30,045 nucleotides of DNA from a virus (taxonomy: Duplodnaviria > Caudoviricetes): positions 1 through 30,045 of the IMG/VR virus record IMGVR_UViG_3300037440_000208; one strand, given 5' to 3'. Below, in pieces: positions 2 through 30,045 of this stretch. Numbering within the stretch: the first letter of the stretch is position 1; each line of letters starts with the position of its first letter. The notes under the pieces were generated by a model. The model was given only the letters and a program-made list of their open reading frames with translations, did not search any database and had not been told where the DNA came from. The position numbers and the translations under genes were made by a program.

Positions 2-478
2 CGCTGGCCGCTGGGGTCCGGCGGCCTCCGGCACTTCCGCATCTTCGGCGACTACCCGAAGGGCGCGCAGTCCCTCGACCAGCTCGAGGCGGCCGACTCC
101 GGCGCCATCACCGCATGGCGGCACCTCCACGTCTTGCCCGTGAACCTCGAAGCGGTGTTCACCTCATGCTCGTGGCGGTTCCTATCCGTGACCACCGACA
201 TCGCACGGGAGCTGGCCGATATCGCCCGCGCCGAGCGCGTCGATGCGGCCCGGAACGCGTGCATCGAACAGCGCATCGAGGAGGCCACGGTGCTCTTCGC
301 CGGGTACGTGACCGCGGCCCGCCAGTCAGGGTGCCTCACCGGGCGCGACTACGCCGCCTACGTCGGGCCGGTGCCTGAACAGCTCCGGCGCGCCGGGCGG
401 GCGTGGGCGGCGCTGGGGAAGCGACAGCGCGAGCGACACGCCGCGTACCGGGCGTCGCTTCGGCAGTGGGTACGCTAG
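2..478 (+). CDS. Hypothetical protein, 5'-truncated by window edge
   Basis: Frame of the 134..478 ORF is open back to base 2 (RWPLGSGGLRHFRIFGDYPKG...), GC3-rich codons, stop followed by two hairpins. Confidence 0.7.
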   Translation, partial: RWPLGSGGLRHFRIFGDYPKGAQSLDQLEAADSGAITAWRHLHVLPVNLEAVFTSCSWRFLSVTTDIARELADIARAERVDAARNACIEQRIEEATVLFAGYVTAARQSGCLTGRDYAAYVGPVPEQLRRAGRAWAALGKRQRERHAAYRASLRQWVR

Positions 479-521
479 GGGCGATCAGCCAACCTCCCGA
501 GGGGTTCCGATCGCGTTGACA

Positions 522-556
522 GGCCCTCCCACCGCATGGCGGGGGGGCCGTTCCTG
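522..556 (+). terminator. Probable intrinsic terminator
   Basis: GGCCCTCCCACC-GCAT-GGCGGGGGGGCC hairpin (12 bp, one G-U, one mismatch) followed by GTTCCTG, downstream of stop at 478. Confidence 0.55.
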
Positions 557-571
557 TGTCGTCACCCCCGT

Positions 572-596
572 GTGATACGGTACGCATACGCAAACA
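572..596 (+). promoter_or_regulatory. Repeated promoter/leader motif copy 1 (extended -10 TG-A-TACGGT ... CAAACA)
   Basis: GTGATACGGTACGCATACGCAAACA; 23/25 identical to the reverse complement of 28050-28074; upstream of RBS AGAGG and ATG 614. Confidence 0.8.
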
Positions 597-613
597 TGAA
601 AGAGGCGAACATC

Positions 614-2395
614 ATGGCTTACTCCATCCGCTACACCAGGGCAACGAACCACATCCAAGGCATCCCCGAACGCACCACCGGGCCCGCCACCGACAACTCC
701 GCGACCACCGGCGTCGTCGGCTACTACGCCACCAGCGCTTGCGCCGCCCTCACCCGCTCCGGCCACCGCATGGGGTTCGCGGCCTCCCGCGATGACCTCG
801 CCGCCATCCTCGACCAGGCCCGCACCACGGGCGGCCGCAACCTGTGCAAGCGATGCGAGCGCGCCGCCCTCCGCGCCCTCGCCGACGCCGCCAGCGCCGC
901 CCCCACGGCCCCGGCCACCCCCACCTACGCCACCGCGCTCGCCGCGCTCCCCACCGGTACCGATGTCCAGATCTACACAGCCATGGGCCACACCGTCACC
1001 GGGAAAATCGCGGGCACCGGCACCGACGGCGCCATGATCGCCGACGACATCACCGGCAACCGCCGCCAGGTCCCCTACGACACCGTGGCATCGTTCGAGC
1101 ACTTCGACCACGACACCGAAACGTGGGCCGACCCCATCGCCGACGCCGAACCCACCCCCGCCGACCGCGAGCGCACCTATGAGCTCGCCTACCGCACCGC
1201 CAGAGACACCGCCGACCACGCCGCCCGCATCACCGACGACGCCGCCGACAGCGCCGCCGAAGCCGCTTACGAGCGGTACCGGGGCGCCGCCGACACTATC
1301 GACCGGTGCCTCATCTTCGGGTGCGAAGCCACCACCGACCCGCACCGCGCCTACTGCCACGAGCACGACACCACCGACGACGCCGACGACACGGCGTGCG
1401 GTGAGCGGACCACCGTCGACGGCATCGGCTACCCGTGCATCAACCGCGGCGAGCATGTCGAGCACAACACCCGCTTGGGCGCCGCATGGCGGGTCCCCGC
1501 CGTTGACGTCCTCACGCTCGGCGCCGCCTACACCGACGCCCGCCAGGCGTACATGCGCGCCGCCGACCGGCTCGAGGAGACAGGCGCCGAATCCGACCAG
1601 CTCGCCGCCGACGACGCGTGGGGAACGTTCATCGCCGCCGCTGACGCCGCCGGAATGTGCCGTGCGTTCACGTGCTACGCCGAAGCCGAGCCCGGCGCCA
1701 CCGAATGCCAGCACCACCGCTGCCAGCACGACGCCGCCGACAGCGCCGCCATGGCCGCCGACGCGCTCGCGGGCGGCACCGCGAACCCGGAATGCTCATG
1801 CTCCAACGGACTGTGCGAGGACTGTGCCCGCGAGTACCGTGCACAGCTCCCCGCCGACCACCACACGGTGACCGCGCGCTTGGACCACACCGAGCCCGGT
1901 AAAGCCATCGCGATCATCGCCACCGGCCACGGCCGCGAGCACACCCCGCAAGCATGGCTTGCGCACGAGCGCGGCTCGTGGCTCCTCGTGGACGACTACG
2001 ACGGCGACACGCTCAATGTGAAGGGCCCCGACGCCGAGCGCGCCGTGCACGCGTGGGCCGCCCTCTTGGGGATCCGCATCGACACGCTCACCGTCGACGT
2101 GGAGTACGCGGGCGGCCCCGTCTCCCCACCGGTGCCACCGGCGCCGGACGCGCGCGGCGCCGACCTCGTATGGGCCCGCGACAGCGAAGAGGTGAACGTG
2201 TTCCACGCCCACGGCCGCGCGCACGACTACCGACTCACCGAGCACTACGACGGCGCGAACCTGGTGGTGTCCCTCCGCGGCAAGGGCGGCCCCATAGTGG
2301 TGTACCGCCGCCGCTACACCACCCGGGCGGGCGGCCGCCGGGCCGCGCAAGCGTTCGAGCACCGGCACGGGCCCATGAACGCGCCCGCCCAATAG
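614..2395 (+). CDS. 593-aa multi-module Cys/His-rich accessory protein (several putative Zn-binding motifs, Sm-like segment)
   Basis: ATG 614 with AGAGG RBS; strong C3 codon bias; motifs CKRC, two C-x4-C-x10-C-x2-H, C-x12-C-x5-H-x2-H, CSC-x4-CEDC; bracketed by promoter and terminator. Confidence 0.8.
   Translation: MAYSIRYTRATNHIQGIPERTTGPATDNSATTGVVGYYATSACAALTRSGHRMGFAASRDDLAAILDQARTTGGRNLCKRCERAALRALADAASAAPTAPATPTYATALAALPTGTDVQIYTAMGHTVTGKIAGTGTDGAMIADDITGNRRQVPYDTVASFEHFDHDTETWADPIADAEPTPADRERTYELAYRTARDTADHAARITDDAADSAAEAAYERYRGAADTIDRCLIFGCEATTDPHRAYCHEHDTTDDADDTACGERTTVDGIGYPCINRGEHVEHNTRLGAAWRVPAVDVLTLGAAYTDARQAYMRAADRLEETGAESDQLAADDAWGTFIAAADAAGMCRAFTCYAEAEPGATECQHHRCQHDAADSAAMAADALAGGTANPECSCSNGLCEDCAREYRAQLPADHHTVTARLDHTEPGKAIAIIATGHGREHTPQAWLAHERGSWLLVDDYDGDTLNVKGPDAERAVHAWAALLGIRIDTLTVDVEYAGGPVSPPVPPAPDARGADLVWARDSEEVNVFHAHGRAHDYRLTEHYDGANLVVSLRGKGGPIVVYRRRYTTRAGGRRAAQAFEHRHGPMNAPAQ
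1236..1750 (+). repeat. 23-bp direct repeat ACGACGCCGCCGACAGCGCCGCC at 1236-1258 and 1728-1750
   Basis: Exact match seen; both encode DAADSAA in the 614..2395 ORF. Confidence 0.85.
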
Positions 2396-2409
2396 ATACA
2401 CATGAGACG

Positions 2410-2439
2410 ACGGCCCCCGGCATCATCGCCGGGGGCCGT
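2410..2439 (+). terminator. Intrinsic terminator-like hairpin
   Basis: Perfect 12-bp stem ACGGCCCCCGGC/GCCGGGGGCCGT, loop ATCATC, 15 nt after stop at 2395. Confidence 0.75.
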
Positions 2440-2450
2440 ACGCTTGTCCC
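2439..2450 (+). promoter_or_regulatory. Putative -10 (TACGCT) for a leaderless transcript starting the structural operon
   Basis: TANNNT hexamer 6 nt upstream of ATG 2451, no SD present. Confidence 0.5.
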
Positions 2451-2825
2451 ATGATCGAAGCGCTCGGGCTCCCGGTGTGGAGCGTGCTCATCCTGTTCCC
2501 GCTGTGGTTCGTGCTCAACACCCTCGCGGCCGCGCGCCTCACACAACTCGTGACCACCGATTCCATCACCGGGCCCCCTCGAGTGGCCGTCACCGAATGG
2601 TCCGACCGGCGCACCATCACCCGCCCGCTCGCCGTCCTCATCAACTGCGGGTGGTGCGTATCGGTGTGGGTGTCCGCCGGACTGGCCGCCTTCGACGCAT
2701 GGGCCGGTGGTCCCCTCGCCGCCGGAGTCGCCGCCGCCGGATACGACACCGCGGCCGCCGGGTGGGCCGTCATCGTTGCGGCGCTGGCGCTGGCGGCGGG
2801 TATGCTCGCCACAAGCACCAGGTAA
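2451..2825 (+). CDS. DUF1360-like membrane protein
   Basis: Hydrophobic segments and RLTQLVTTDSITGPPR...LINCGWCVSVW signature; usual position upstream of portal. Confidence 0.75.
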   Translation: MIEALGLPVWSVLILFPLWFVLNTLAAARLTQLVTTDSITGPPRVAVTEWSDRRTITRPLAVLINCGWCVSVWVSAGLAAFDAWAGGPLAAGVAAAGYDTAAAGWAVIVAALALAAGMLATSTR

Positions 2826-2849
2826 GGGGCCGGAACGCGGGGGGCGGGC

Positions 2850-4727
2850 ATGGCACGAAGCACGACGGCGGCACGTCCCACACGGCCCGCGGCGCGCTCC
2901 ATCGTGGCCGCCTCCGCGGCTATGTACGGGCGGCCGGGCACGAAACTCGAAGTGAACACCGCGGAGTGGCAACGGGAGTCATACCGGCTTTATGACGTGG
3001 TTGGGGCCGCCCGGTTCGTCGCCAACACCGTCGCCAATGCCGTCTCCCGGTGCCGCCTCTACATTGCGAAGCTCGACCCCGACACCGGCGAAGTGCTCGG
3101 CGAAGCCGACGACGCCGCGCTGAAACCCTATGTCGCGTCGCCGTTCGGCACCGGTGACCGGCGCCGGGAGAATATCCGCCTGGCCGCGTTGAACCTGTTC
3201 GTGTGCGGGGAGTACTTCCAAGTCGGTGAAGGCGCCCGCGGTGAAGGCGAACGCGACCGCTGGTATGTCGTCTCACCGTTCGACTTTCAAAAGCAAAAGG
3301 GCGGCGGCACGAGCGCGACTCTGCTCTGTGACCGGCCACCGATGTACGGCGGCGGACAGGCACAGCTTGACCCGGGCACCGACAAGCGCAAGGGACGGGA
3401 TGTGGTGGCCCGGGTGTGGACGCCGCACCCGATGCACTCCCGTGAGGCTGACTCCCCGTTCCGGGCCGCTATCCCCGACCTCAACATCCTCCACACCATC
3501 AAGAAACGCGAATCCGCCGAGCTTGACTCACGGTTGGCGGGGGCGGGGATCCTGTTCGTCCCCGACAGCTTCACGCTGCCAGGGAAGGACGGGAACCCGG
3601 GCACCGTCCAAGATCTGATGGATGAGCTCATCGAGATTGCCTCCGAAGTCATCTCGGACCCCTCGCATCCCTCGAGCATCATTCCCTACATTCTCAAGGT
3701 CCCCGGCGAAGACATCGACAAAGTGAAGCTGCTGAATTTCTGGTCGGAGTTGTCGGCGGCGCTCGGCGAACTCTCCGACCGGAAGATTCGCGCCCTCGCA
3801 CAAGCGTTCGATGCACCCGTGGAAACCCTCGAGGGCGCCGGGAACACGAACCACTGGAACCTGTGGCGCATCGCCGAAGAAACCATCACCACCCACTATG
3901 AGCCGCTGTTGTCGCGCATGGCCGACAGCATCACCACCGTCTACCTTCGGCCCGGCCTCACCACCACCAGCCTCAACCCCGACGAATACGCGTACGCGTT
4001 CGACACCACCCCGCTCCGCGTCCGCGCCGACCGCTTCGGCGACGCCGTGAAACTCCGCGAGCTCGGATTGCTCTCCGATGAAGCCACCCTTCGCGCTGGC
4101 GACTTCAATGAGAACGACGCCCCCAACAAGCAGGAAAAAGCCGAACGGCTCGCCCGGGAACTCGTGGTCGCGAACCCCGAGCTGGCCGCGGGCCCGCTCG
4201 GGGTCCTCGCCGGGCTCGACATCAATGAACGCATCATCATTGACGGCACCACCGCTCCCGAACCGGCCGCCCCGGCACCGGCCGTCGAAGCCGCGCCCCG
4301 CGCCGTCCAAGGCCCGCCCGACGCCGCCGACGCCACCGGCTCCGGCGACGCGCTCACCGCTTCGCTCCTCGCGCAACTCCCCACCGACGCCGCCGTGACC
4401 GTCCTGGCGAACACCGCCGTGCACCGCGCCCTCGAAAAGGCAGGCGGGCGCCTGGTCAAGACGTGGCCCAAAACCGCCGACCGCGCCCGCCTCCACACCA
4501 CCATCGCCACCGCGCCCAACAAGGGACAGGCACAACGCGCGCTCGCCGGAGCATGGGACCAGCTACCCGCGTTCACCGCCGGGCTCGACGTGGACACCGA
4601 CCAGCTCACGAACGCGCTCAACGCGTACACGGTGGAACTCCTCGTGCGCCGCCGCGACCACGAACCCGAAGCGCTCGCCGCCGTGCTCGGCTTCGCACGC
4701 CTCACCGGAGCCTCCCATGCCCGATGA
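2850..4727 (+). CDS. Portal protein
   Basis: WQRESYRLYDVVG, RVWTPHP...ADSPFRA, SRLAGAGILFVP, NHWNLW motifs typical of cluster-B-like actinophage portals; first large gene of head module. Confidence 0.88.
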   Translation: MARSTTAARPTRPAARSIVAASAAMYGRPGTKLEVNTAEWQRESYRLYDVVGAARFVANTVANAVSRCRLYIAKLDPDTGEVLGEADDAALKPYVASPFGTGDRRRENIRLAALNLFVCGEYFQVGEGARGEGERDRWYVVSPFDFQKQKGGGTSATLLCDRPPMYGGGQAQLDPGTDKRKGRDVVARVWTPHPMHSREADSPFRAAIPDLNILHTIKKRESAELDSRLAGAGILFVPDSFTLPGKDGNPGTVQDLMDELIEIASEVISDPSHPSSIIPYILKVPGEDIDKVKLLNFWSELSAALGELSDRKIRALAQAFDAPVETLEGAGNTNHWNLWRIAEETITTHYEPLLSRMADSITTVYLRPGLTTTSLNPDEYAYAFDTTPLRVRADRFGDAVKLRELGLLSDEATLRAGDFNENDAPNKQEKAERLARELVVANPELAAGPLGVLAGLDINERIIIDGTTAPEPAAPAPAVEAAPRAVQGPPDAADATGSGDALTASLLAQLPTDAAVTVLANTAVHRALEKAGGRLVKTWPKTADRARLHTTIATAPNKGQAQRALAGAWDQLPAFTAGLDVDTDQLTNALNAYTVELLVRRRDHEPEALAAVLGFARLTGASHAR

Positions 4728-5532
4728 ACCACCGGTGTGGGACGGCCGCGGCGCGGATCCGTGGATGCCCGAACGGCTCGCCGCGTTCCTCGACGCCGCC
4801 CGCGCCGAAGCACGCATGTTCGCTGCGTTCTGGCGGTTCCTCCGCGACTGGATCGCGCTGGTACGCGACCGGATGCGCGAATCACGCTACGATCCCACCG
4901 TCATTCCCGGCCTCCGCTCGGCATGGTGGGACGCCATGACCGAATACGCCGAACGCGACATCGTGGACACGATGAACGACGGATTCCAGCGGGTCACCGG
5001 CGAACCGTATGCGCTCGACGGCCGCGCGCTGGCCGTCGCCCGCGCGATGGAGCGCCGCAACATGCTCGTGCGCGTCGCCGACGAGGTGTATGCGCGCGTG
5101 CAAGCCGCCGTGGCGAAAGCGGTGAACGTGGGCACCTCCGGTGAAGACCTGGCCGACATCATCGAAGGCATCTTCGACACCACGGGCACCCCCTACTGGG
5201 AGAACCGGGCCACCGTCGTCGCTCGCACCGAAACCCTCTCGGCGCTCAACGGCGGCCGCTACGACGGCCACGTGTGGACGGCGGGGCGGCTCGGCGGCGC
5301 GTTCGAGCGTGTATGGGTTGCCACGTTCGACGCCCGCACCCGCGAATCACACCGCCGCGCCGAAGGCCAGCGCGCGCCGCTCGACGGCGCGTTCGCTGTC
5401 GGTGACCCGCCTTCGATGCTGCGGTGGCCTGGTGACCCGCTGGGGCCGCCGGAAGAGACGATCCAATGTCGGTGCACCACGATCCTCGTGCGGCCCGGCC
5501 AGAATCTCAACGTCATCGCCCGTCGAGCCTAA
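4717..5532 (+). CDS. MuF-like minor capsid / head morphogenesis protein
   Basis: RATVVARTET, RVWVATFDARTRESH, PGDPLGPPEETIQCRC motifs; follows portal. Confidence 0.9.
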   Translation: MPDEPPVWDGRGADPWMPERLAAFLDAARAEARMFAAFWRFLRDWIALVRDRMRESRYDPTVIPGLRSAWWDAMTEYAERDIVDTMNDGFQRVTGEPYALDGRALAVARAMERRNMLVRVADEVYARVQAAVAKAVNVGTSGEDLADIIEGIFDTTGTPYWENRATVVARTETLSALNGGRYDGHVWTAGRLGGAFERVWVATFDARTRESHRRAEGQRAPLDGAFAVGDPPSMLRWPGDPLGPPEETIQCRCTTILVRPGQNLNVIARRA

Positions 5533-5544
5533 AAGGAGACGATC

Positions 5545-7242
5545 ATGGGCAGGCTGTTCACAATGGTCCTGGGGCGCCGGGGCCAGTCATACCGTGACCT
5601 CCGCGGGAACATGATTGCCGACGCCATGTGGTCGGCCATGCAACTCCCGGCCGCCGTGTTCTATCAGCCCGACAACGTGCCCGCGCACAACGGCGGTGTC
5701 CGCGTCGGAAACCTCTACACTGTGGACATTCCCGAAGGCGACGGCGCCGAAATCACCGCGACCGGCGAATTCTTCGACGGCCGGGCCGGTATGGAGCGTA
5801 TCCAGCCGTGGGTGCAAGAGGCGGTCGCGATGGCCGCCGAAGGCGCCATCTGGCCGTCCGTCGACCCCGCGGTTATCGAGGTGATGGACAACGGCGACGG
5901 GGAGGCGTCGGTGGTGAAAGCCGACATCCCCGGCGTGACGCTCGTGTCGATGCCCGCGTTCGTCGGCACGTCGGTAACGCTCCTCCCCGAAGAGGAGACG
6001 ACCGCGCCCGACGACGACGCCGAAGGGATGCCAGCGGATATGCCGGTGGTCGCGGCCGTCCTCGCCGAAGGCCACGCCGACCTCCCCGTAGCGCCCCGCG
6101 ACCGGGCGTGGGATGGCGCGGCCGCCGCCGGGCGCGTCGCCGGGCGCTGCGAGGTCGACGCCGAAGGCGCCGAAGCGGCCGCCTGGTCGTGCTACGCGCG
6201 GGCGTTCCTGTACCGCGACGACGCCGCCGACCCGGCCACGAAGGGCGCCTACAAACTCGGATACGCCGACATCATCGACGGCGAACTCACCATCGTCCCC
6301 GCGGGCGTTATCGCTGTCGCAACCGTCTTGCAAGGCGCCCGCGGGGGTGTGGACATCCCCGAAGCCGACCAGGAACGGTTGCGAGGCGTTGTCGCCGCCC
6401 TCTACGCGCACATCAACGACGCCACCGGCACCGACCTCACCCCGCCATGGGAAGCGGATGAGGCCGCGCTCGTGGCCGCCGCCGTCGCGACCGTCCGCGA
6501 ACCGGTACCGGCCGACGCCTTCAACGAACCGCCGCTCGAGGGATACCAGCCCGGCTACCGCATCGAAGGCGCCCGCATCTTCGGGCACCTCACGAACCGG
6601 GCCGCCTGCCACCGGTCGTGGCCCGCTTCATGCGTGACCCCACCCGAGTCGGCATCGAACTACGCCGTCGCCAACCGATACGACATCATCACCAGCGAAG
6701 GGCCCCTCGAGGTCGGGCGCGTCACCACCGGGCTCGGCGCCGTCGGCTCCGGGTGCACCTGCCACGGCGGCGGCGTCATCGATGACCACTACTGTCCCGG
6801 GTCCCGGTCGGCGGCGGCCGCGATTGCCCACTACGACCAGTGCGCCACCGTCGCCGATGTGATGATCGGGGAGAACGAGGACGGTTCGGTGTGGGTGGCG
6901 GGCGTCATGCGCCCGGCGCTGCCCGCCGACGCCGCCCGTGTCCTCGCCCGCCGTGTGTGGTCGGGCGACTGGCGGCCGTGGGGCACCGGCGCCGAGCTCG
7001 TCGAAGTGCTCGCGCTCGACCACGCCGAACCCGGCTTCACCCACCGCACGAAGCACAACGCCGCCGCCTACACGCTCATCGCCGCCACCGGCCCGGCCGC
7101 GGCGCCGCCTGTGGATGAGGATGAAGCGTTGCGCCGTGTCGTCCGCGAAGAGCTCGAACGCGAACGCGAGACGGAAGCGCATCGACGTACCCTTGCCGCT
7201 GTCGCCTCGCGTTCGGCGCTGGCCGCGATCACCCGCAACTAG
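5545..7242 (+). CDS. Capsid maturation protease, multi-domain
   Basis: N-terminal H..VG / WPSVD / TLVSMPAF prohead-protease motifs; C-terminal GxIFGHL..CH..SGDWR domain; AAGGAG RBS. Confidence 0.8.
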   Translation: MGRLFTMVLGRRGQSYRDLRGNMIADAMWSAMQLPAAVFYQPDNVPAHNGGVRVGNLYTVDIPEGDGAEITATGEFFDGRAGMERIQPWVQEAVAMAAEGAIWPSVDPAVIEVMDNGDGEASVVKADIPGVTLVSMPAFVGTSVTLLPEEETTAPDDDAEGMPADMPVVAAVLAEGHADLPVAPRDRAWDGAAAAGRVAGRCEVDAEGAEAAAWSCYARAFLYRDDAADPATKGAYKLGYADIIDGELTIVPAGVIAVATVLQGARGGVDIPEADQERLRGVVAALYAHINDATGTDLTPPWEADEAALVAAAVATVREPVPADAFNEPPLEGYQPGYRIEGARIFGHLTNRAACHRSWPASCVTPPESASNYAVANRYDIITSEGPLEVGRVTTGLGAVGSGCTCHGGGVIDDHYCPGSRSAAAAIAHYDQCATVADVMIGENEDGSVWVAGVMRPALPADAARVLARRVWSGDWRPWGTGAELVEVLALDHAEPGFTHRTKHNAAAYTLIAATGPAAAPPVDEDEALRRVVREELERERETEAHRRTLAAVASRSALAAITRN

Positions 7243-7256
7243 GAGAGGATCACCGC

Positions 7257-7412
7257 ATGTGCCCGTCTTGTCAGAAAAACGAATGGTTTTTCGTCGACCC
7301 GAAAACGGGTGAAGAGGTGGTGCGCAAGTCGCACTACGATGCGATCGTGGCCCGCCGCCAGCTCGGCGCGACCGGCGCCCGCATCGACTCCCGCAAGAAA
7401 GTCACGGCGTAA
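7257..7412 (+). CDS. 51-aa hypothetical protein (MCPSCQKNEWFFVDPKTG...), not in ORF track
   Basis: AGGAGAGG RBS, fills gap between protease and next gene, N-terminal CxxC like small genes following cluster-B-like proteases. Confidence 0.75.
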   Translation: MCPSCQKNEWFFVDPKTGEEVVRKSHYDAIVARRQLGATGARIDSRKKVTA

Positions 7413-7414
7413 CC

Positions 7415-7690
7415 ATGACCGTCCGTTCCGTCGATGAGCTCTCCAACCGGTTCGCCTACCACCCCCCGGCCGGGCCCCACATTGCCGACGCGCACGAGGA
7501 ACTACGCGAAGCCGCGTACACGCTCGCCGCGGCCATTGAACGGCTCGTGCCGCCCGGCCGCGAGCGCGTCACCGCCATCACCAAATGCGAAGAGGCCATG
7601 ATGTGGGGGAACGCCGGAGTCGCCCGCGCGTCCGGCCTCGCACGCCTCGAAGCGGGAGACCACCATGGGCCGCACACCGAACGGCGATGA
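7415..7690 (+). CDS. Acb2/Tad1-hairpin-like protein (candidate cyclic-nucleotide sponge)
   Basis: NRFAYHPP...GRERVTAITKCEEAMMWGNAGVAR matches the RExxxAxTKLEEAxMW pattern of Tad1/Acb2-fold proteins. Confidence 0.65.
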   Translation: MTVRSVDELSNRFAYHPPAGPHIADAHEELREAAYTLAAAIERLVPPGRERVTAITKCEEAMMWGNAGVARASGLARLEAGDHHGPHTERR

Positions 7691-7961
7691 TGCCGCGAAG
7701 GCACGCGCACACCTGGCGTTCCTCGCCAGCGCCGACGGGGACGCTACGGCCGCCGTCGGCAACACGGAAGCGTTGAAACGCTACTGGACTATCGGCGAAG
7801 GCGGGGCGCGTATCAGGTGGGGGACCGACGGGGACTTGACGCGCTGCCACCGCGAAGTGTCGAAAGAGGTCCCGGTGAAAGACATGACCAGCGATGACGT
7901 GTGGGGTTACTGCCAGAACCTTCACAAGCGGCTGTTCGGGACCTCGAACCCGCGTGATTGA
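7665..7961 (+). CDS. Conserved head-module hypothetical protein
   Basis: LKRYWTIGEGGARIRWGTDGDLTRC...GYCQNLH domain, recognisable from actinophage head genes; GGGAG RBS. Confidence 0.75.
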   Translation: MGRTPNGDDAAKARAHLAFLASADGDATAAVGNTEALKRYWTIGEGGARIRWGTDGDLTRCHREVSKEVPVKDMTSDDVWGYCQNLHKRLFGTSNPRD

Positions 7962-7987
7962 ACGATGCGTGTGGTGCGGGGGCCGCG

Positions 7988-7996
7988 TGTTACCCT
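7988..7996 (+). promoter_or_regulatory. Putative extended -10 promoter (TG-T-TACCCT) for major capsid gene
   Basis: TGnTAnnnT in the intergenic gap ahead of the structured leader. Confidence 0.5.
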
Positions 7997-8013
7997 CGCG
8001 GAGTAAGCCTGAC

Positions 8014-8079
8014 TCGTGATGCCTGGGACAGCGGGGCCGACCGGCTCACTGTCCCGTGTCCAGTACACACGCATCACGA
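8014..8079 (+). promoter_or_regulatory. Structured 5' leader (three-way junction) of major capsid mRNA
   Basis: TCGTGATGC 8014-22 pairs with GCATCACGA 8071-79; GGGACAG 8025-31 with CTGTCCC 8049-55; GTGT 8056-59 with ACAC 8065-68; SD GGGAG at 8081. Confidence 0.55.
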
Positions 8080-8094
8080 TGGGAGATATCCGTC

Positions 8095-9990
8095 ATGGAT
8101 AAGCTCGTGCGCCCCGACAACTTCGGGGACTTCACCCGCGAACAGCTCGAGCAGTGGGACGCGCAGGTCCGCGCCGTCGCCACCGAGCTCGGGAAACTCA
8201 CGTCGTTCACGAACGATGACATTGCCTATTCGACACAGCTGGTGGCGTGGGCGAACGACAACGCCGAAGCGTTCACGGCGCTGGCGCCGTCCGACGCCGA
8301 CGGCGAGGCCGCCCGTGCCGCGCTGGCCGCGCTCACGGCCGCGCCCGCCGCCGACGACAACGGCGACGGCGACGGCGACGACACCGGCGACGACGACGAC
8401 ACCGCCGGTGGTGACGAGTCCCGTGCGGTCCTCCGCTCTGTTGAGCTGCTGCTCAACAACGTTGCCGAGCGCATCAAGTCGGAAACGCCCCCCGCGCCTG
8501 AACCGCCCATCAACGGCGGCGGCGGCGGTGGTTCGGCGCCTTCGGTCGCGGACCTCGCCGGGGCGGGCGTCGGCAACGACACCCCCGACACGGTGAATGA
8601 ACCCGTGCTCGTGGCGGCCGCCGACTTCGGGAACTACCACAACGGCCAGTCGCTCGAAGACCTCTCCGGCCTCGCCGGTGCCGTCAAGGGCCGCCTCAAG
8701 TCCTACGTGCAGTCGCCCGGCGGCGGCAAGGGCCCCGTGCTCCTCACGAAGGGCGACGGCAAGCCGCTCCCGGCGAACGCTGCCGCGGGCGTCATGGCGC
8801 CCGTCCCCGGCGGCGGCTTCGCGCTCACCGGACGGCGCCAGGCGATCAGCGACGGCCACACGAAGCACGCCGTGGCCCGCATCGAGCGCGACTCCGCACA
8901 GCTCGAAGAGTTCACCATCAACGATGCGGAGGTGAACTCGCTCATCGCCGCGCGCGCGCAGGACGAGTGGGTGCGCCAGCTCCGCGCCGGGCGCATGGCC
9001 GCCATCGGCGGCACCCCCCGCGATTCGCTCATCGCGGCGTGGTGCGCCCACCCCGAGTCCTGGTACACGCTGTGTGAGCAGTGGTCCCTGGACGGGCGGC
9101 TCGTGCTCCCCACGCGCCAGATCCCGCGCGGCTCCATCCAGTTCGCGACCGGCTACGACTTCTCAACGGTGTTCACCGCCGTCGGGGAGAACACCGCCAC
9201 CTGTGAAGAGCTCGAAGAGGGCGTCACGAAGACGTGCGTGGAGGTGCCTTGCCTCGACGCCGAAACGACGTGCCTCAACGTCGACTGGCTGTGCATCACC
9301 GCCGACATCCTCCAGCGAAGGGCGTGGGGAGAATCCGTCGAGTCGTTCATTTCGGCGGCGCTGGCGGTGAAGCTCCACAAGACGAACGGGCGCATCATCA
9401 ATCAGATCGCGTCCGGTTCGGGCGCGGCCACCGTCATCGCCTCGTGCGACGGCGACGGCGCGTTCGAGTCGTTCCTGTACGGGCTGCAAGTGGCGAAGAT
9501 CGACGGCCAGTACAACTCCTACATGTCGCTGTCGGGCGAGTGGGAGGCCATCGTCCCGGCGTGGGTCCTCGAACAGCTCCGCGCTTCGGTGATGCGCCGC
9601 CGCGCCATCGAGGACCCGGTGAAGGCGGACTCGTGGATGCAAGCGCAGTTCGCGAAGATCGGGTACACGGTGCACTTCGTGTATGGGTGGCAGGACGCCC
9701 ACGTCACCACCCCGGCCACCGGGCTCCCCGGCGGCCCCGACCCGATCGCGTCGCTGCCCACCGAAGCCGACTTCATTGCCTACCCCGCCGGTACGTGGGT
9801 CCTCGGCGAGCTCCCCGTGATCGAGCTCGACACCATTTACGACTCCGCCGGGCTCCAGTCGAACAGCTTCACCGCCCTGTTCGTGGAGGATGGCTGGTCG
9901 GCGCTGAAAATGTGCAACCTCTCCCGCCTGTACACGGTCGCGCTCGACCCGTGCGGCTGCGGTTGCTCCGGCGGCGGGTCCACCTCCTAA
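8095..9990 (+). CDS. Major capsid protein (hexamer type) with N-terminal scaffold-like region
   Basis: 631 aa; acidic helical N-terminus; SLIAAWCAHPE..Y.LC, RGSIQF, LDTIYDS..LQSN.FTALFVEDG motifs of cluster-B-like capsid proteins; ATG 8095 with GGGAG. Confidence 0.85.
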   Translation: MDKLVRPDNFGDFTREQLEQWDAQVRAVATELGKLTSFTNDDIAYSTQLVAWANDNAEAFTALAPSDADGEAARAALAALTAAPAADDNGDGDGDDTGDDDDTAGGDESRAVLRSVELLLNNVAERIKSETPPAPEPPINGGGGGGSAPSVADLAGAGVGNDTPDTVNEPVLVAAADFGNYHNGQSLEDLSGLAGAVKGRLKSYVQSPGGGKGPVLLTKGDGKPLPANAAAGVMAPVPGGGFALTGRRQAISDGHTKHAVARIERDSAQLEEFTINDAEVNSLIAARAQDEWVRQLRAGRMAAIGGTPRDSLIAAWCAHPESWYTLCEQWSLDGRLVLPTRQIPRGSIQFATGYDFSTVFTAVGENTATCEELEEGVTKTCVEVPCLDAETTCLNVDWLCITADILQRRAWGESVESFISAALAVKLHKTNGRIINQIASGSGAATVIASCDGDGAFESFLYGLQVAKIDGQYNSYMSLSGEWEAIVPAWVLEQLRASVMRRRAIEDPVKADSWMQAQFAKIGYTVHFVYGWQDAHVTTPATGLPGGPDPIASLPTEADFIAYPAGTWVLGELPVIELDTIYDSAGLQSNSFTALFVEDGWSALKMCNLSRLYTVALDPCGCGCSGGGSTS

Positions 9991-10005
9991 CCGGGGGTTA
10001 CTGCC

Positions 10006-10788
10006 GTGCCTATCGCGCCTGCTATCGCACTCGCCGCGCCGCCCACGAACGGGGTGGCGGCGCGGCGGTACTCCATCCTGAACGCCGCCGTCGGCCCGCT
10101 CGACATGCCCGACGGCGGCCGCCTGGTCGACGTGGCCTATACCGTGCCGTGGTGCGGGCCCGGCGGCGAAGTCCTCGCCCCCGACTGCGAGACACCGCCG
10201 CCGAACGTCCCCGAAGGCCCGCTCGCGCTGGTCGACGGCATCGCGTTCACCGTGTCGCGCATGTTCGAGTGCACTTCGCACGGGATCACGCCCGCCGACG
10301 CCGAGCGGTTCATGCGCGAACGGCTCGACGCGTCCGAACACGTGCACGTGGAGCGGGCCGTGGCCGCGCAGCTGGCCGCCGCGGGTGCAACCGCGCTGGC
10401 GGCGTCGGCGACGATCGTGGCCGCCGTGTCGGCGCTCGAAACGTTCGCATACTCGACGGAAGGGTACGGCCCGACCGCGGTCATTCACGTCCCGATCGGC
10501 GCGTTCGCCTACCTCGCCGAATCCCACCAAATCAGTAGGGAATCATCAACGGGGGTGTGGCGCACCCCGCTGGGCACCATCATCGCCCCCAATGCCGGAC
10601 TCACCGACACCGCGTACATCACCGGGCTCCTCGTGCTGTGGCGCTCCACCACCGAATTCATCTCGCCCGCCGAAGCCGCGCTCGACCGGGCCGCCAACGA
10701 ATACCGCATGGTCGGCCAGCGCGATTGGATCGCGGCGTGGGAGTGCTTCACCGCCTCTACCGTGCTTACCCAGCTGGAAGGCGCGTAG
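10006..10788 (+). CDS. Second capsid protein (pentamer type)
   Basis: 260 aa directly after major capsid; AVSALE..AY...VIH..., WRTPLGT motifs as in cluster-B-like pentamer proteins. Confidence 0.7.
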   Translation: MPIAPAIALAAPPTNGVAARRYSILNAAVGPLDMPDGGRLVDVAYTVPWCGPGGEVLAPDCETPPPNVPEGPLALVDGIAFTVSRMFECTSHGITPADAERFMRERLDASEHVHVERAVAAQLAAAGATALAASATIVAAVSALETFAYSTEGYGPTAVIHVPIGAFAYLAESHQISRESSTGVWRTPLGTIIAPNAGLTDTAYITGLLVLWRSTTEFISPAEAALDRAANEYRMVGQRDWIAAWECFTASTVLTQLEGA

Positions 10789-10790
10789 CC

Positions 10791-11006
10791 GTGGCAATCA
10801 TCATCGAATCGAAACAGGACGACGGTTCGTGGGTGTCCATCACCGACCTCACTGAACGTGTCCTCGAAGCCGCACCCGAAGCGACGGTGCGGAAGGTCAA
10901 GGGCACCGTGTCGGGCGTGGAGGTGAACGACGGCGCCGCCGTCAAATACCTTATGACGCGCTACACGGCGAAGGGCAACGCACGCAAGGGGGGATACGAT
11001 GGCTAA
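10791..11006 (+). CDS. 71-aa hypothetical protein
   Basis: GTG start 2 nt after upstream stop, GGAAGG RBS, overlaps start of next gene. Confidence 0.7.
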   Translation: MAIIIESKQDDGSWVSITDLTERVLEAAPEATVRKVKGTVSGVEVNDGAAVKYLMTRYTAKGNARKGGYDG

Positions 11007-26948: not shown

Positions 26949-27251
26949 ATGGCGCGAACCAACGGCCACCGGGTGCCCGATTCGGCGCCGACCCCGGTGC
27001 ATCTCATTGACGGCGGCCAGCTGTATCAACAGGTGTCGAACATGGCCGCGACGCTCGTGCGCACCGAGACGCTGTTGGCGGCGCACCTCGAGCTCGAGCG
27101 TGAGGAGCGCGAGCGCCGGAACGCCGAGCGCGGCGCCGACGATAAACGGTTCACGGCGCTGGAACAACGGGTGTGGGCGATCCCCGGCGCCGGTACGCTC
27201 ATCGCGCTCGCCGGAATCGCCATTACCATCATGACGCTCAAAGGGGGATAG
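26949..27251 (+). CDS. Lysis-cassette membrane protein (coiled coil + C-terminal TM)
   Basis: Charged coiled coil, LEQRVW then hydrophobic helix; between endolysin and holin. Confidence 0.7.
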   Translation: MARTNGHRVPDSAPTPVHLIDGGQLYQQVSNMAATLVRTETLLAAHLELEREERERRNAERGADDKRFTALEQRVWAIPGAGTLIALAGIAITIMTLKGG

Positions 27252-27253
27252 GC

Positions 27254-27463
27254 ATGGTGAAAATCGACTTCAAACGACTGGCGGGCCACACCCGGAAGCG
27301 GCTGTACCTCGCGATCCCGTACGGGGCCGGGTTGCTGGCCGCTTACGGCGTCGTCGCCGACTCGAAAGTGTCGCTGTGGGTCGGACTGGCCGGAGTGATT
27401 CTCGGGCCCATACAAGGGCACGTGGCGGCCGCGAACGTGCCGCCCGATCACGACGGCGAATAA
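27254..27463 (+). CDS. Holin (2 TM)
   Basis: 69 aa; RKRLY...LLAAYGVV....LWVGL...LG....A.NV pattern of actinophage 2-TM holins. Confidence 0.75.
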   Translation: MVKIDFKRLAGHTRKRLYLAIPYGAGLLAAYGVVADSKVSLWVGLAGVILGPIQGHVAAANVPPDHDGE

Positions 27464-27474
27464 TCGGGGGGATG

Positions 27475-27513
27475 ACGGCGGCCCCGCACCGTGGGGAGGT
27501 GCGGGGCCGCCGT
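27475..27513. terminator. Bidirectional terminator between convergent units
   Basis: Perfect 16-bp stem ACGGCGGCCCCGCACC/GGTGCGGGGCCGCCGT. Confidence 0.85.
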
Positions 27514-27523
27514 TGTGTGCGCG

Positions 27524-28033
27524 TTAGGAGTTGCGCGAGTGGAATTCGTTCATGCGGTAGGAACCGGGGTCGCCAGCGCAGTCGACGTTCGTACGGACCG
27601 TGTAGGCGTCCCACCGGCGGCCGGTGGCCTTGGAGTAGGCGCGGGCGGTGCACGTGACGTGCGCGGCGACGGTGCCGCCGTCGGCGGTGAGGATCGCGAC
27701 GCGGGGGCCTTCGGAGGGGAGGCCGCACAGCTGGCAGTCGCCGGGGGTGCACTTACCGGCAATTTCCTCGCGGGCCACGGGGGACAGCGCGAGCCGTGCG
27801 ACGACTTCGGGTGCGAGGGTGGGGCGCTTTTTGGTGGCGTTCGCGACGCGCGCTTTCGTCCATCCGAGCAGGGTGGCGCCGCACGCGGGGCCGACGTTGA
27901 TGGTGGCGCCGTCGGGGGTTTCGAGGACTACGCCGCGCTTCAAGTCCTCGTAGCGGCATTCCGCGCACGTGGCGCCGGTGCTCTCGGCGAACTTCGCTTT
28001 GTTGATCGGGCCGACCAGCTTGTAACCGCTCAT
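27524..28033 (-). CDS. Hypothetical protein with two tandem putative Zn-binding domains
   Basis: AGGGAG RBS; CAEC..VVLETPDG.T..VGPAC and CQLC..VAILTADG.T..AHVTC. Confidence 0.8.
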   Translation of the reverse strand: MSGYKLVGPINKAKFAESTGATCAECRYEDLKRGVVLETPDGATINVGPACGATLLGWTKARVANATKKRPTLAPEVVARLALSPVAREEIAGKCTPGDCQLCGLPSEGPRVAILTADGGTVAAHVTCTARAYSKATGRRWDAYTVRTNVDCAGDPGSYRMNEFHSRNS

Positions 28034-28049
28034 GTGATGCTCCCTAACC

Positions 28050-28074
28050 TGTTTGCGTACGAGTACCGTATCAC
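28050..28074 (-). promoter_or_regulatory. Repeated promoter/leader motif copy 2
   Basis: Reverse complement GTGATACGGTACTCGTACGCAAACA; 16 nt upstream of ATG 28033. Confidence 0.8.
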
Positions 28075-28080
28075 GAGGGT

Positions 28081-28106
28081 TCGGGGGGCCGACACCGGCC
28101 CCCCGA
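28081..28106 (-). terminator. Terminator hairpin after the 28110..29408 gene
   Basis: Perfect 11-bp stem TCGGGGGGCCG/CGGCCCCCCGA, 3 nt after stop. Confidence 0.75.
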
Positions 28107-28109
28107 CAA

Positions 28110-29408
28110 CTACGCCTCGGCGCCGAGCGCCGCCTTCACCGGTTCGAGCCACCGCCGCCCGGTGGAGGCGTCGACGGTGAACGCTTCGCCGAGCTGGCGG
28201 CCAGTGGGGAGCTCACCGGTGTCTTTGAAGTAGTCGGCAATCCACACGGCCCGTTCGGTGTCGCCCTTGAATGACGCGAGGATTGTGGCGGCGACGCCTG
28301 CGACTTCGCGCGCGTCGACGCGCGCGGGCGCCTGCTTGGCCTCGACGGCGCGCGCGCGCTCGAGCGCGTCGCGCACCATGGCGTTCGGTGCGTGGGGCGC
28401 TTCGGCCGGTGCGGGTTCGGGCGCCGGTGCCGCGGGGGTGCCCCATACGACGCCGAGCGCGCCAAGCGCGGCCGGGGCGAGCGCGTCGAGCGCGCCGAAG
28501 CGCGCGGCCACGAGCTCGGCGACATACGCGCGCCCGGCCTCATCGAGGATGCCGCGCGCTTGCGCGGCGTGTACCGCGCAGTCGAACCGCCACGCGCGCC
28601 ACGCGCGCGCGCGCTCGGCGCGGTGCGCTTTCACCGCGCGCGCGGCCACGCGGTTGAGGCGCCGCTCGCGATCCTTGCGGTTCGTGTCGGTGCTCGTGGG
28701 GGTGCGGCCGAGCCACACCAAGGCGGCCTCGAAGCGGCGCCGGGCCGCGGCCGCCGCCTTCGCCGCCCACGACAGGGCGCCCCCGCGGCGGCGCCGTTCG
28801 GCTCTGGCGGTGAGGTGGAACCCGAACGCGGCCAGCGGCGCGAACACCAGGTAAATCCAGTCACCGCCGCCGTGGTAACCGACCAGCGCGAGCACGATGG
28901 AGCCGCCCCATGTGCACACGCCGTAGATGTCGAGCCCGTCTTGGCTGGTGGTGATGTGCCACCAGGACAGCGCGAACATGGTGAGCATGAATCCCTCGAA
29001 CGCGGCGAAGCCGAGCACGCGCACCCACCAGGATTCGAGCCCGGCGCCGGTGAGCGCGTCTTGAATGCCGTGCGCGGAGAGGACGGTGGCGGCCAGCGCG
29101 GTGAAGTTGAGGAGCGCGAGGAGCGCGCGGCGGGCGGTGGGGGTGTCCATGAATGAGGTGGCGACGGCGCGCGCGCGTGCGCGGACGCGCGCGCGTCGGC
29201 GGGCGGCGCGTGCGTGGTGCGCGGCCCACAGCTGGGCGCGTGCGCGTGCGCGTTCGCGCGCGCCGAGCGTGAGGCGGCGCGCGGTGATGTCGGCGATGGT
29301 GATGAGCGCGGCGGCCATGATGAGCGCGGCGATGATGAGGGTGATGGCGGTGGGCGTATCGGTGGTGGTGAGCCACGCGGTGGCGCCGGTAGGGTGGTCC
29401 CCGAGCAT
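28110..29408 (-). CDS. Multi-pass membrane protein with C-terminal HTH-like motif (DUF2637/Spd-like)
   Basis: Several TM helices, APLAA..H motif, C-terminal GELPTGRQLGEAFTVDASTGRRWL; GAGG RBS. Confidence 0.65.
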   Translation of the reverse strand: MLGDHPTGATAWLTTTDTPTAITLIIAALIMAAALITIADITARRLTLGARERARARAQLWAAHHARAARRRARVRARARAVATSFMDTPTARRALLALLNFTALAATVLSAHGIQDALTGAGLESWWVRVLGFAAFEGFMLTMFALSWWHITTSQDGLDIYGVCTWGGSIVLALVGYHGGGDWIYLVFAPLAAFGFHLTARAERRRRGGALSWAAKAAAAARRRFEAALVWLGRTPTSTDTNRKDRERRLNRVAARAVKAHRAERARAWRAWRFDCAVHAAQARGILDEAGRAYVAELVAARFGALDALAPAALGALGVVWGTPAAPAPEPAPAEAPHAPNAMVRDALERARAVEAKQAPARVDAREVAGVAATILASFKGDTERAVWIADYFKDTGELPTGRQLGEAFTVDASTGRRWLEPVKAALGAEA

Positions 29409-29475
29409 GTGAACCTCGCAATCATGTTCGTCGGGGAGGCCGGGGCCGCGTCGGTGTGGTTCCGGCCTCTTGTTT
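29402..29475 (+). ncRNA. Predicted cis-antisense RNA covering RBS/start of the 28110..29408 gene
   Basis: -10 TAGGGT 29390-95; 5' hairpin 29402-09/29423-30 with CCTC in loop; hairpin 29436-69 + TTGTTT; G-U pairs favour plus strand. Confidence 0.5.
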
Positions 29476-29495
29476 GAATCCGGTTACCGTATCAC
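29471..29495 (-). promoter_or_regulatory. Repeated promoter/leader motif copy 3
   Basis: Reverse complement GTGATACGGTA-ACCGGATT-CAAACA, same 11+8+6 layout as copies 1 and 2. Confidence 0.75.
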
Positions 29496-29496
29496 C

Positions 29497-29625
29497 CGGT
29501 AGGTGGGGGTGGCAGCGTGTATCGTTGGCCCTGCAAGACGGGTCGCGTCGTTCAACGGTCCCCTATCTTGTTTGCGCGAACCGCCTGCCGGAGTTGGGGA
29601 ACCTTCCGGTGGGCGGTTCTTTCGT
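29497..29625 (+). ncRNA. Predicted small RNA ending in a plus-strand intrinsic terminator
   Basis: Hairpin 29578-29619 (G-U pairs on plus strand) followed by TTTCGT; preceded by CCCCTATCTTGTTTGCG; 5' end uncertain (TACCGT 29485 or TATCGT 29520 as -10). Confidence 0.4.
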
Positions 29626-29643
29626 GTCCAGGGCATACGGAAG

Positions 29644-29682
29644 GGCCCCGGGCGCGGAGAGGATCGCAACGCGCCCGGGGCC
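29644..29682 (-). terminator. Terminator hairpin after the 29691..30035 gene
   Basis: Perfect 13-bp stem GGCCCCGGGCGCG/CGCGCCCGGGGCC. Confidence 0.7.
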
Positions 29683-29690
29683 GGTAGTGG

Positions 29691-30035
29691 TTACCGCGCC
29701 GTGGCCGGTAACCCGACCAGCTCGAGCCCGGGAATGGCCCGCTGGCCGGGGAGGTGACCGCGGGGAGGCCGGTAGGCCGGGGTGCCGCGAAGGCACCGCA
29801 GGCAGTTCACGCGGTCGGTGGTCGGTGCGCCGTCCGCGAGCGGGCCACCGGCGGTGGCGGCCCCGCACTTGGGTGCGGGTATCTGCGAGCCGTCGAGCCA
29901 ATCGGTGTCGGCGACGGTGTGGACGGCGCCGGTGGCGCGTAGGCGCATGTTGCGGCCGTGGTAGGCGTAGCGGGCGCCGGTGGCGCGGGCGCGGATGAGT
30001 GCACCGAAATCGTGTATCGGCTTCGAGGTTGCCAC
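29691..30035 (-). CDS. Hypothetical protein, putative Zn-binding (H...C...CxxC)
   Basis: GTG start with GGAG RBS; VH...PAPKC...VNCLRC; followed by terminator. Confidence 0.75.
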   Translation of the reverse strand: MATSKPIHDFGALIRARATGARYAYHGRNMRLRATGAVHTVADTDWLDGSQIPAPKCGAATAGGPLADGAPTTDRVNCLRCLRGTPAYRPPRGHLPGQRAIPGLELVGLPATAR

Positions 30036-30045
30036 GGTGTTCTCC

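Follow-up and report, generated by a model that had tools for sequence, protein, structure and literature searches.

Genes and features at the locus

The window, by which we mean the whole 30,045-nucleotide stretch of DNA analysed here, is a virus record whose plus strand carries a virion and lysis block running from portal to holin. Towards its end lies the 17-mer CCCCTATCTTGTTTGCG (29560-29576, plus strand), one base 5' of a hairpin of 15 bp (29578-29619) that is followed by a TTTCGTGT tail, just as a first-pass annotation of the window had described a 17-mer directly before a plus-strand terminator. On one side is a 114-aa cysteine-containing gene (29691-30035, minus strand), whose terminator hairpin (29644-29682, minus strand) converges on the locus. 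On the other side, likewise on the minus strand, are promoter cassette copy 3 (29485-29495), an extended -10 of the form TGA-TACGGT with a predicted +1 at 29479, and the leader (29409-29479) and coding region (28110-29408) of a 432-aa protein with hydrophobic segments. This protein is DUF2637/SpdB-like in language-model features only, which we treat as a lead; searches of Pfam and PHROG and comparisons with phages and plasmids gave no match. Its leader is long and structured and carries a degenerate tag, CAAACAAGA (29476-29468). The leader also contains a hairpin that covaries among the five loci compared below and a conserved GAACA 5' of the Shine-Dalgarno (SD) sequence, and it possibly exerts a separate cis control.

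The window portal protein is nearest to that of Actinoplanes phage phiAsp2 (33.7%), followed by those of other actinobacteriophages, and therefore the host is likely an actinobacterium; the phages of this family are uncultured. GenBank phages searched with the window DNA gave no match, and positions 28000-58638 of phiAsp2 contain one CAAACA, no promoter cassette and no match to the RNA model described below. Sediment metagenome runs contain DNA near-identical to the window, which may derive from one or other of two of these runs. Among the sequencing runs listed, we found no RNA run carrying window sequence, and their DNA contigs showed no variants in the RNA region.

Because both ends of one relative, G001, are colinear with contiguous sequence of another, G003, we take G001 to be circularly complete at ~50 kb, despite an IMG/VR rating of only 68%. 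No integrase (PF00589 or PF07508) was detected in any of the four records searched, and none of the 23 GTDB genome matches to the cassette pattern is a multi-copy prophage; the phage may adopt a plasmid-like state. G001 encodes an ERF gene and, near the RNA locus, a tandem HTH gene. In L148 (18616-19340), a tandem HTH gene is transcribed divergently from a gene that may encode a replication initiator. This HTH gene lies two genes upstream of the RNA locus, and its product is a candidate protein regulator of the cassettes.

Three further features of these genomes were observed. Inside the head module, the window encodes an Acb2/Tad1 hairpin-domain protein (7415-7690, plus strand; PF24729, E 8e-16), likely the product of a nucleotide-sponge anti-defence gene, and the blastn comparison of the window with G001 has a gap at 7472-7713 that overlaps this gene. 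A TACGCT 6 nt 5' of the ATG of the first virion-block gene (2439-2453, plus strand) is a candidate leaderless late promoter. Directly 5' of the terminase large subunit, positions 409-912 of L147 (plus strand) carry the PHROG label 'Rnase E' (phrog_645), which we take to be probably the small terminase.

Conservation of a two-hairpin unit

Four orthologous loci (G001/L184, L181, L182 and L183) were found by anchoring on flanking proteins, among them the 114-aa protein. All five loci share the same order of elements, read on the strand opposite the 432-aa gene: reversed promoter box 3, a 23-24-nt spacer, TAnnnT, 6-7 nt, RCAAG, a variable stretch, CUUGUUUGCG, a hairpin, a T-rich tail and the convergent terminator of the 114-aa gene. 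Box 3 is identical in all five, as is the seed CUUGUUUGCG (29567-29576, plus strand; 100% identity), whereas identity to the window is 35-47% in the spacer and 10-45% in the variable 5'-stem stretch. When L183 is compared with the window by blastn, the neighbouring gene alone aligns. Some 15 further homologues, on contigs of up to 50 kb, lie outside the five-locus comparison.

The TAnnnT element, TATCGT in the window (29520-29525, plus strand), is the predicted -10 box of the RNA. It reads TATTCT in the most distant locus, and the changes in L183 fall only in the free positions of TAnnnT, a pattern with a background of 0.001-0.0015 per base in these genomes. This conserved -10 places the predicted +1 at 29533, giving a putative small RNA of ~90-95 nt (29533-29627, plus strand; 83-104 nt in the five loci) composed of a 5' stem, the seed and a terminator hairpin. 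The plus-strand RNA proposed in the first-pass annotation gains comparative support from four related loci, with its likelier 5' end at 29533 in place of 29497 (36 nt shorter).

That annotation had also suggested firing from the symmetric -10 of cassette copy 3, in place of which the separate conserved -10 at 29520-29525 is more likely to serve. Initiation at copy 3 would add a variable G-rich 5' extension, and the retention of its TACCGT in four of five loci is forced by the minus-strand promoter. The predicted RNA promoter has no recognisable -35 and, in four of the five loci, no extended -10. Promoter box 3 centres near -42 of the predicted RNA start, and cassette copy 3 is both divergent from the predicted RNA promoter and overlaps it. 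A generic promoter/terminator scanner called neither the cassette promoter nor the RNA terminator. An Rfam cmscan of 27000-30045 to E=5 returned eight sub-threshold matches, none of them over the RNA locus. Our own RNA model matches its five training loci alone; it found no paralogue, and it gave no match for two weak relatives of the 114-aa protein.

Structure and strand of the predicted RNA

In the predicted 5' stem (29533-29571, plus strand), RCAAG pairs with the CUUGU of the seed; all 25 cells of the five-locus alignment are paired and four of the five pairs are invariant. The interior of this stem is a variable inner stem and loop that hold the anti-SD part, with inner pairs showing two-sided changes. 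The last five seed bases, UUGCG (29572-29576, plus strand), form a predicted single-stranded toehold between the stems. For an RNA ending in the U run, UUGCG has an unpaired probability of 0.7-1.0 and CUUGU is paired in all five RNAs; with a longer 3' end, the RNA tail is predicted to cover the GCG of the toehold. The terminator-like hairpin (29578-29627, plus strand) has 15 bp, including a tandem U-G/G-U, and a T-rich tail. At its loop edge is GAACCUYC (29599-29606, plus strand; GAACCT in all five loci), a possible second anti-SD seed that is partly paired and mirrors the GAGGTT present in 11 of 37 leaders, and that is also a generic anti-SD sequence.

We scored a hand-set structure of 20 pairs over the five loci against 500 shuffles. 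On the plus strand, 95 of 97 cells are paired and six pairs, all in the terminator-like hairpin, show two-sided changes, a combination reached by none of the shuffles (0/500), although with five related sequences such covariation scores are inflated by relatedness. Slid controls reach 37-54% paired, and RNAalifold independently predicts both stems.

Identical pairs fill 95 cells when read on the plus strand versus 82 on the minus strand, with 14 G-U cells on plus against a single A-C (four columns against one). The minimum free energy is lower on the plus strand in all five loci and the folding z-score favours plus in four of them (-4.1 versus -3.5 in the window), although the minus strand folds well too (z -2.95 to -4.23). 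The plus-strand tails are T-rich (0.36-0.64), resembling ten hand-picked, oriented phage terminators (mean tail T 0.38), whereas the minus-strand tails lack T. At the sequence level, a predicted promoter and terminator of its own accompany the unit on one strand in all five loci. We conclude that the conserved two-hairpin unit is likely transcribed from the plus strand as a ~90-nt small RNA.

A shared tag in promoter cassettes

The invariant seed mirrors an 8-base tag, CGCAAACA, which precedes as many as a dozen non-structural genes and of which the RNA locus therefore carries a further, promoter-less copy. The window has three exact copies of GTGATACGGTA, at 572 (plus), 28074 and 29495 (both minus). 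Copy 1 (572-616, plus strand) comprises promoter cassette, tag (589-596), SD and the start of a 593-aa gene (614-2395), and copy 2 (28031-28074, minus strand) comprises promoter cassette, tag (28057-28050), SD and the start of a 169-aa gene (27524-28033). A search of IMG/VR with the pattern GTGWTACRNTA-N6-CGCAAACA identified 22 stretches, every one in four contigs of the same phage family. The same pattern gave 23 single matches in GTDB genomes, none labelled actinobacterial.

We collected 35 cassette copies, several of them mutually orthologous (3 from the window, 11 from G001, 4 from G002, 11 from G003, 4 from G004 and 2 from L181). Their consensus is TG-n-TACRNT, a near-fixed spacer, the tag and then a variable SD, with A at the expected +1 in 25 of the 35. 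Sigma-70 extended -10 geometry and promoter rules, applied to the cassette, predict that the tag occupies +2 to +9 of the mRNA. An alternative assignment of the tag, as the -10 of an alternative sigma factor, was rejected: transcription would start inside the SD, and no sigma factor (Sigma70_r2) was detected in the four records.

The set of tagged genes, proposed for the window as a dispersed regulon, is larger in a relative. G001 has 11 promoter-linked tag copies, located at 275-10900, 37574 and 40546-49453, with none in the structural block; tagged leaders sit on separate, distant units. In the sequences examined, 33 of 40 exact occurrences of GCAAACA are downstream of the promoter box. Five of the other seven are the RNA locus itself, one, accompanied by an SD, lies 5' of an internal G004 gene, and the last lacks an SD. 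Motif searches of the window alone are at chance level (8 matches versus 4.15 expected in a loose search with two mismatches, and 6 versus 4.52 in another), so that relatives are needed. The case against chance rests on the 13 GCAAACA occurrences in G001, compared to 0 control matches, and on conservation in all five orthologous loci. A looser seed pattern matched at least 120 stretches of viral contigs, and 21 of the 25 loci of another search were dropped as chance, being single matches in low-GC contigs.

The cassettes appear to be exchangeable modules, since the promoter-tag-gene-terminator unit of the 169-aa gene (window 27510-28110) is missing from G001 and a contig from run X3 diverges from the window at 28075-28081 and continues into a match of opposite orientation. 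Variants of the arrangement were also observed. In L153 (3523-3548, plus strand), a promoter-less tag and SD precede an internal gene, and the first 17 bases are the mirror of the G001 seed. Atypical cassettes without T at -7 are present in L149 (527-560, plus strand) and L181 (5548, minus strand). In the atypical G001 cassette, the bases 5' of the tag are a repeat of the hairpin's 3' arm as it reads on the minus strand, and this cassette is perhaps left over from the duplication that gave rise to the RNA. A back-to-back pair of tagged promoters (6490/6561 in G001) is conserved in G002, G003 and G004.

Predicted pairing with tagged leaders

Counted by hand from the window sequence, the 17-mer pairs with the 28033-gene leader through 14 Watson-Crick pairs and one G-U pair of 16, with the 614-gene leader at 14 of 17 positions and with the third leader over 9 nt, in agreement with the counts of the first-pass annotation. 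We then cofolded full RNAs with 37 leaders, each represented by its first 45 nt, and compared them with random windows. Nine of the 11 G001 leaders are in the top 0.8% when ranked against 396 random windows; the exceptions are the adjacent leader (12%) and an atypical leader (5%). For the window, 397 random windows were used. Here the three proposed targets fare unequally: the 28033 leader is strong (dG -14.8, 1%) and the best predicted target, the 614 leader is modest (dG -7.3, 7.6%), and the adjacent third leader (12%) is a poor target in all five phages, leaving one strong predicted target out of three.

Translation starts with tags are predicted to bind more tightly than starts without them, both in G001 (-10.5 versus -3.8 kcal/mol; 6 versus 28 starts, p=3e-6) and in the window (-11.1 versus -4.5 kcal/mol; 2 versus 12), for script-called genes that cover part of the tagged set. 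Scrambling the tag weakens binding in 14 of 14 leaders, and the predicted duplexes cover the SD in most. The L181 RNA binds weakly across all 37 leaders (-0.6 to -13.2) and has no clear anti-SD. Because the leaders were chosen by their tag, these energies demonstrate discrimination, not function, and follow in part circularly from the tag match.

The seed and the tag core are invariant on both sides. Normalised energies, for which only G001 offered a full leader set, reveal no preference of seeds for leaders of their own genome, and thus no seed-target covariation beyond the invariant core; the covariation of seed and leaders in relatives that had been put forward as a check was looked for and not found. 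The locus has a conserved seed complementary to distant mRNAs that is partly accessible, its toehold being free if the RNA ends in the U run.

Proposed mechanism and alternatives

We consider it reasonably probable, from conservation and modelled pairing, that a trans-acting RNA binds the tagged mRNA 5' ends via the UUGCG toehold and covers the tag together with the SD. Host RNA polymerase would start tagged mRNAs at the A before CGCAAACA, and the free mRNA 5' end would dock on the unpaired toehold. The docked mRNA might then displace the RCAAG end of the RNA, a mimic of the ACAAG of the target, such that the weak 5' stem opens and pairing extends over the SD. Occlusion of the SD would block ribosome loading and probably shorten the life of the mRNA, and the tagged non-structural genes would likely be shut down together by one RNA. 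The RNA promoter and the divergent promoter of copy 3 are probably coupled, because they overlap. The most likely role of such an RNA is to damp early or accessory genes after they have acted, and it may also maintain a carrier state. A broader version of this proposal is tentative, and we doubt that it holds in full: the toehold-gated RNA might be the master off-switch of a plug-in regulon that genes join through promoter-plus-tag cassettes, with the terminator loop as a second anti-SD seed and the overlapping divergent promoters as a toggle, so that a phage without an integrase would gain temporal control or immunity with no protein repressor.

The tag might instead act at the level of DNA, either as an initial transcribed sequence that aids promoter escape or as an operator for an HTH protein; the fourth tag copy would then be an auxiliary site or the relic of a duplicated cassette, and the plus-strand RNA would have another job. 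This agrees with the tag being held at a fixed distance from the promoter box and not from the start codon, with the tandem HTH protein that G001 encodes near the locus and with the absence of seed-leader covariation. However, the distance between the fourth copy and promoter 3 varies from 66 to 83 bp, and an element acting on DNA leaves unexplained the RCAAG/CUUGU pairing, the strand-biased G-U pairs and the seed boundary, which matches the predicted mRNA 5' end with GCG included. We regard this explanation as unlikely.

It is distinctly improbable that the RNA pairs with tagged 5' ends to protect or activate them, or that it mainly targets host mRNAs. Pairing at the extreme 5' end could presumably shield a message from 5' exonucleases, and a G/U-rich seed accompanied by a generic anti-SD (GAACCUYC) would suit host targets, but most of the predicted duplexes extend over the SD, and s-SodF, the one Streptomyces precedent of such geometry, is described as destabilising its target (PMC3919588).

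It is very unlikely that the minus strand carries here a fourth leader without a promoter, for a short ORF or an attenuator upstream of the 432-aa gene. The 23-codon TTG ORF that the first-pass annotation offered as the gene of such a leader does exist in the window, with an SD spacing of 4 nt. L182 and L184 likewise read tag, SD and start, the promoter-less G004 tag is a sense leader before an internal gene, and both hairpins fold on the minus strand too. Against this, the minus-strand ORFs differ between loci in frame, length (10-50 codons) and SD: L182 and L184 have SD-led ORFs of 21 and 17 codons in a frame other than that of the window, L181 has no SD-led minus-strand ORF at the locus, and no other locus uses the window frame with an SD. 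Comparison of the five loci thus reveals no conserved minus-strand reading frame over the RNA, and the 23-codon ORF is not conserved. In addition, no minus-strand promoter box precedes the tag in any of the five loci, the terminator just upstream (29644-29682) would block minus-strand read-through into the seed region, and the strand tests favour plus.

Finally, a type I toxin-antitoxin-like pair, in which the RNA serves as antitoxin solely to the divergent gene for the 432-aa membrane protein, would fit the divergent layout, the long structured leader with its covarying hairpin and the hydrophobic protein, but it can hardly be reconciled with the weak binding of each RNA to its own adjacent leader (-2.1 to -7.4) or with the contrast between an invariant seed and an adjacent tag that is degenerate in three of the loci (the window, L182 and L183).

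Comparison with known regulatory systems

A close parallel to the RNA-mediated off-switch that we favour is s-SodF of Streptomyces coelicolor, described as an RNA of ~90 nt with a weak 5' stem-loop holding the anti-target sequence and a terminator stem, whose pairing begins at the 5' end of the mRNA and reaches into the ribosome-binding site, in an actinomycete without Hfq (PMC3919588). The phage RNA is predicted to share both the two stems and the pairing from mRNA 5' end to ribosome-binding site. According to the same account, s-SodF is host-encoded, is processed from a 3' UTR and has one target, with a perfect match of 18-19 nt and a toehold in the loop. In contrast, the phage RNA has its own predicted promoter, a toehold between stems and about a dozen imperfect targets. 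An origin in a 3' UTR does not apply to it, as the upstream DNA runs antisense to the 432-aa gene and the predicted start has a conserved -10 before it. GcvB of enteric bacteria is similarly reported to use a G/U-rich seed that recognises C/A-rich, ACA-containing elements next to the SD in many mRNAs, but it is a host RNA with an unstructured seed (PMC3879156) and is described as Hfq-dependent (PMC4474525); the phage RNA would recognise a single fixed tag, located where transcripts of a phage promoter cassette are predicted to begin.

Among phage RNAs, C4 of P1/P7 and CI of P4 also pair with transcripts of their own phage (PMC8201110, PMC4825925). As described in these sources, CI arises by processing of a primary transcript and causes termination by pairing with the adjacent seqA and seqC, and C4 regulates the antirepressor of an immunity region. 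The absence of any Rfam match over the locus, which bears out the earlier remark that no resemblance to C4 or CI could be seen, and predicted targets that are dispersed and do not flank the RNA in its own operon set the phage RNA apart; by these sequence features it is not a member of either family. T4 RegB provides another precedent for a single phage factor that acts at the translation initiation regions of many early mRNAs to inactivate them, although RegB is a protein nuclease (PMC3014915) and the factor proposed here is an RNA.

The SAS, ESAS and cluster EC repeats of actinobacteriophages resemble the tag in lying before about a dozen mostly non-structural genes, among them genes between terminase and portal; the role of the repeats is stated to be unclear (PMC7302621). 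These repeats have another sequence, and SAS occupy the ribosome-binding site, unlike the tag, which keeps a fixed position relative to the -10 box and is followed by a variable SD; the passages of PMC7302621 on these repeats mention no complementary RNA. Highly transcribed non-coding regions have been reported for Rhodococcus phage WC1 (PMC10986025). A review describes phage antisense RNAs whose targets are a single phage gene or genes of the host, and its supplement contains 38 further phage sRNAs (PMC12197685). Among literature titles and abstract beginnings, which cover few subscription journals, we found no phage RNA that mirrors a tag common to its own dispersed mRNAs.

Taken together, the locus is likely a real small RNA gene, and a regulon-wide antisense switch is a credible function for it. 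If true, one phage RNA reading a 5' tag on about a dozen of its own mRNAs would constitute a regulon-wide switch in a host that lacks Hfq, and the off-switch reading would offer an answer to the purpose of the start-associated repeats of actinobacteriophages.
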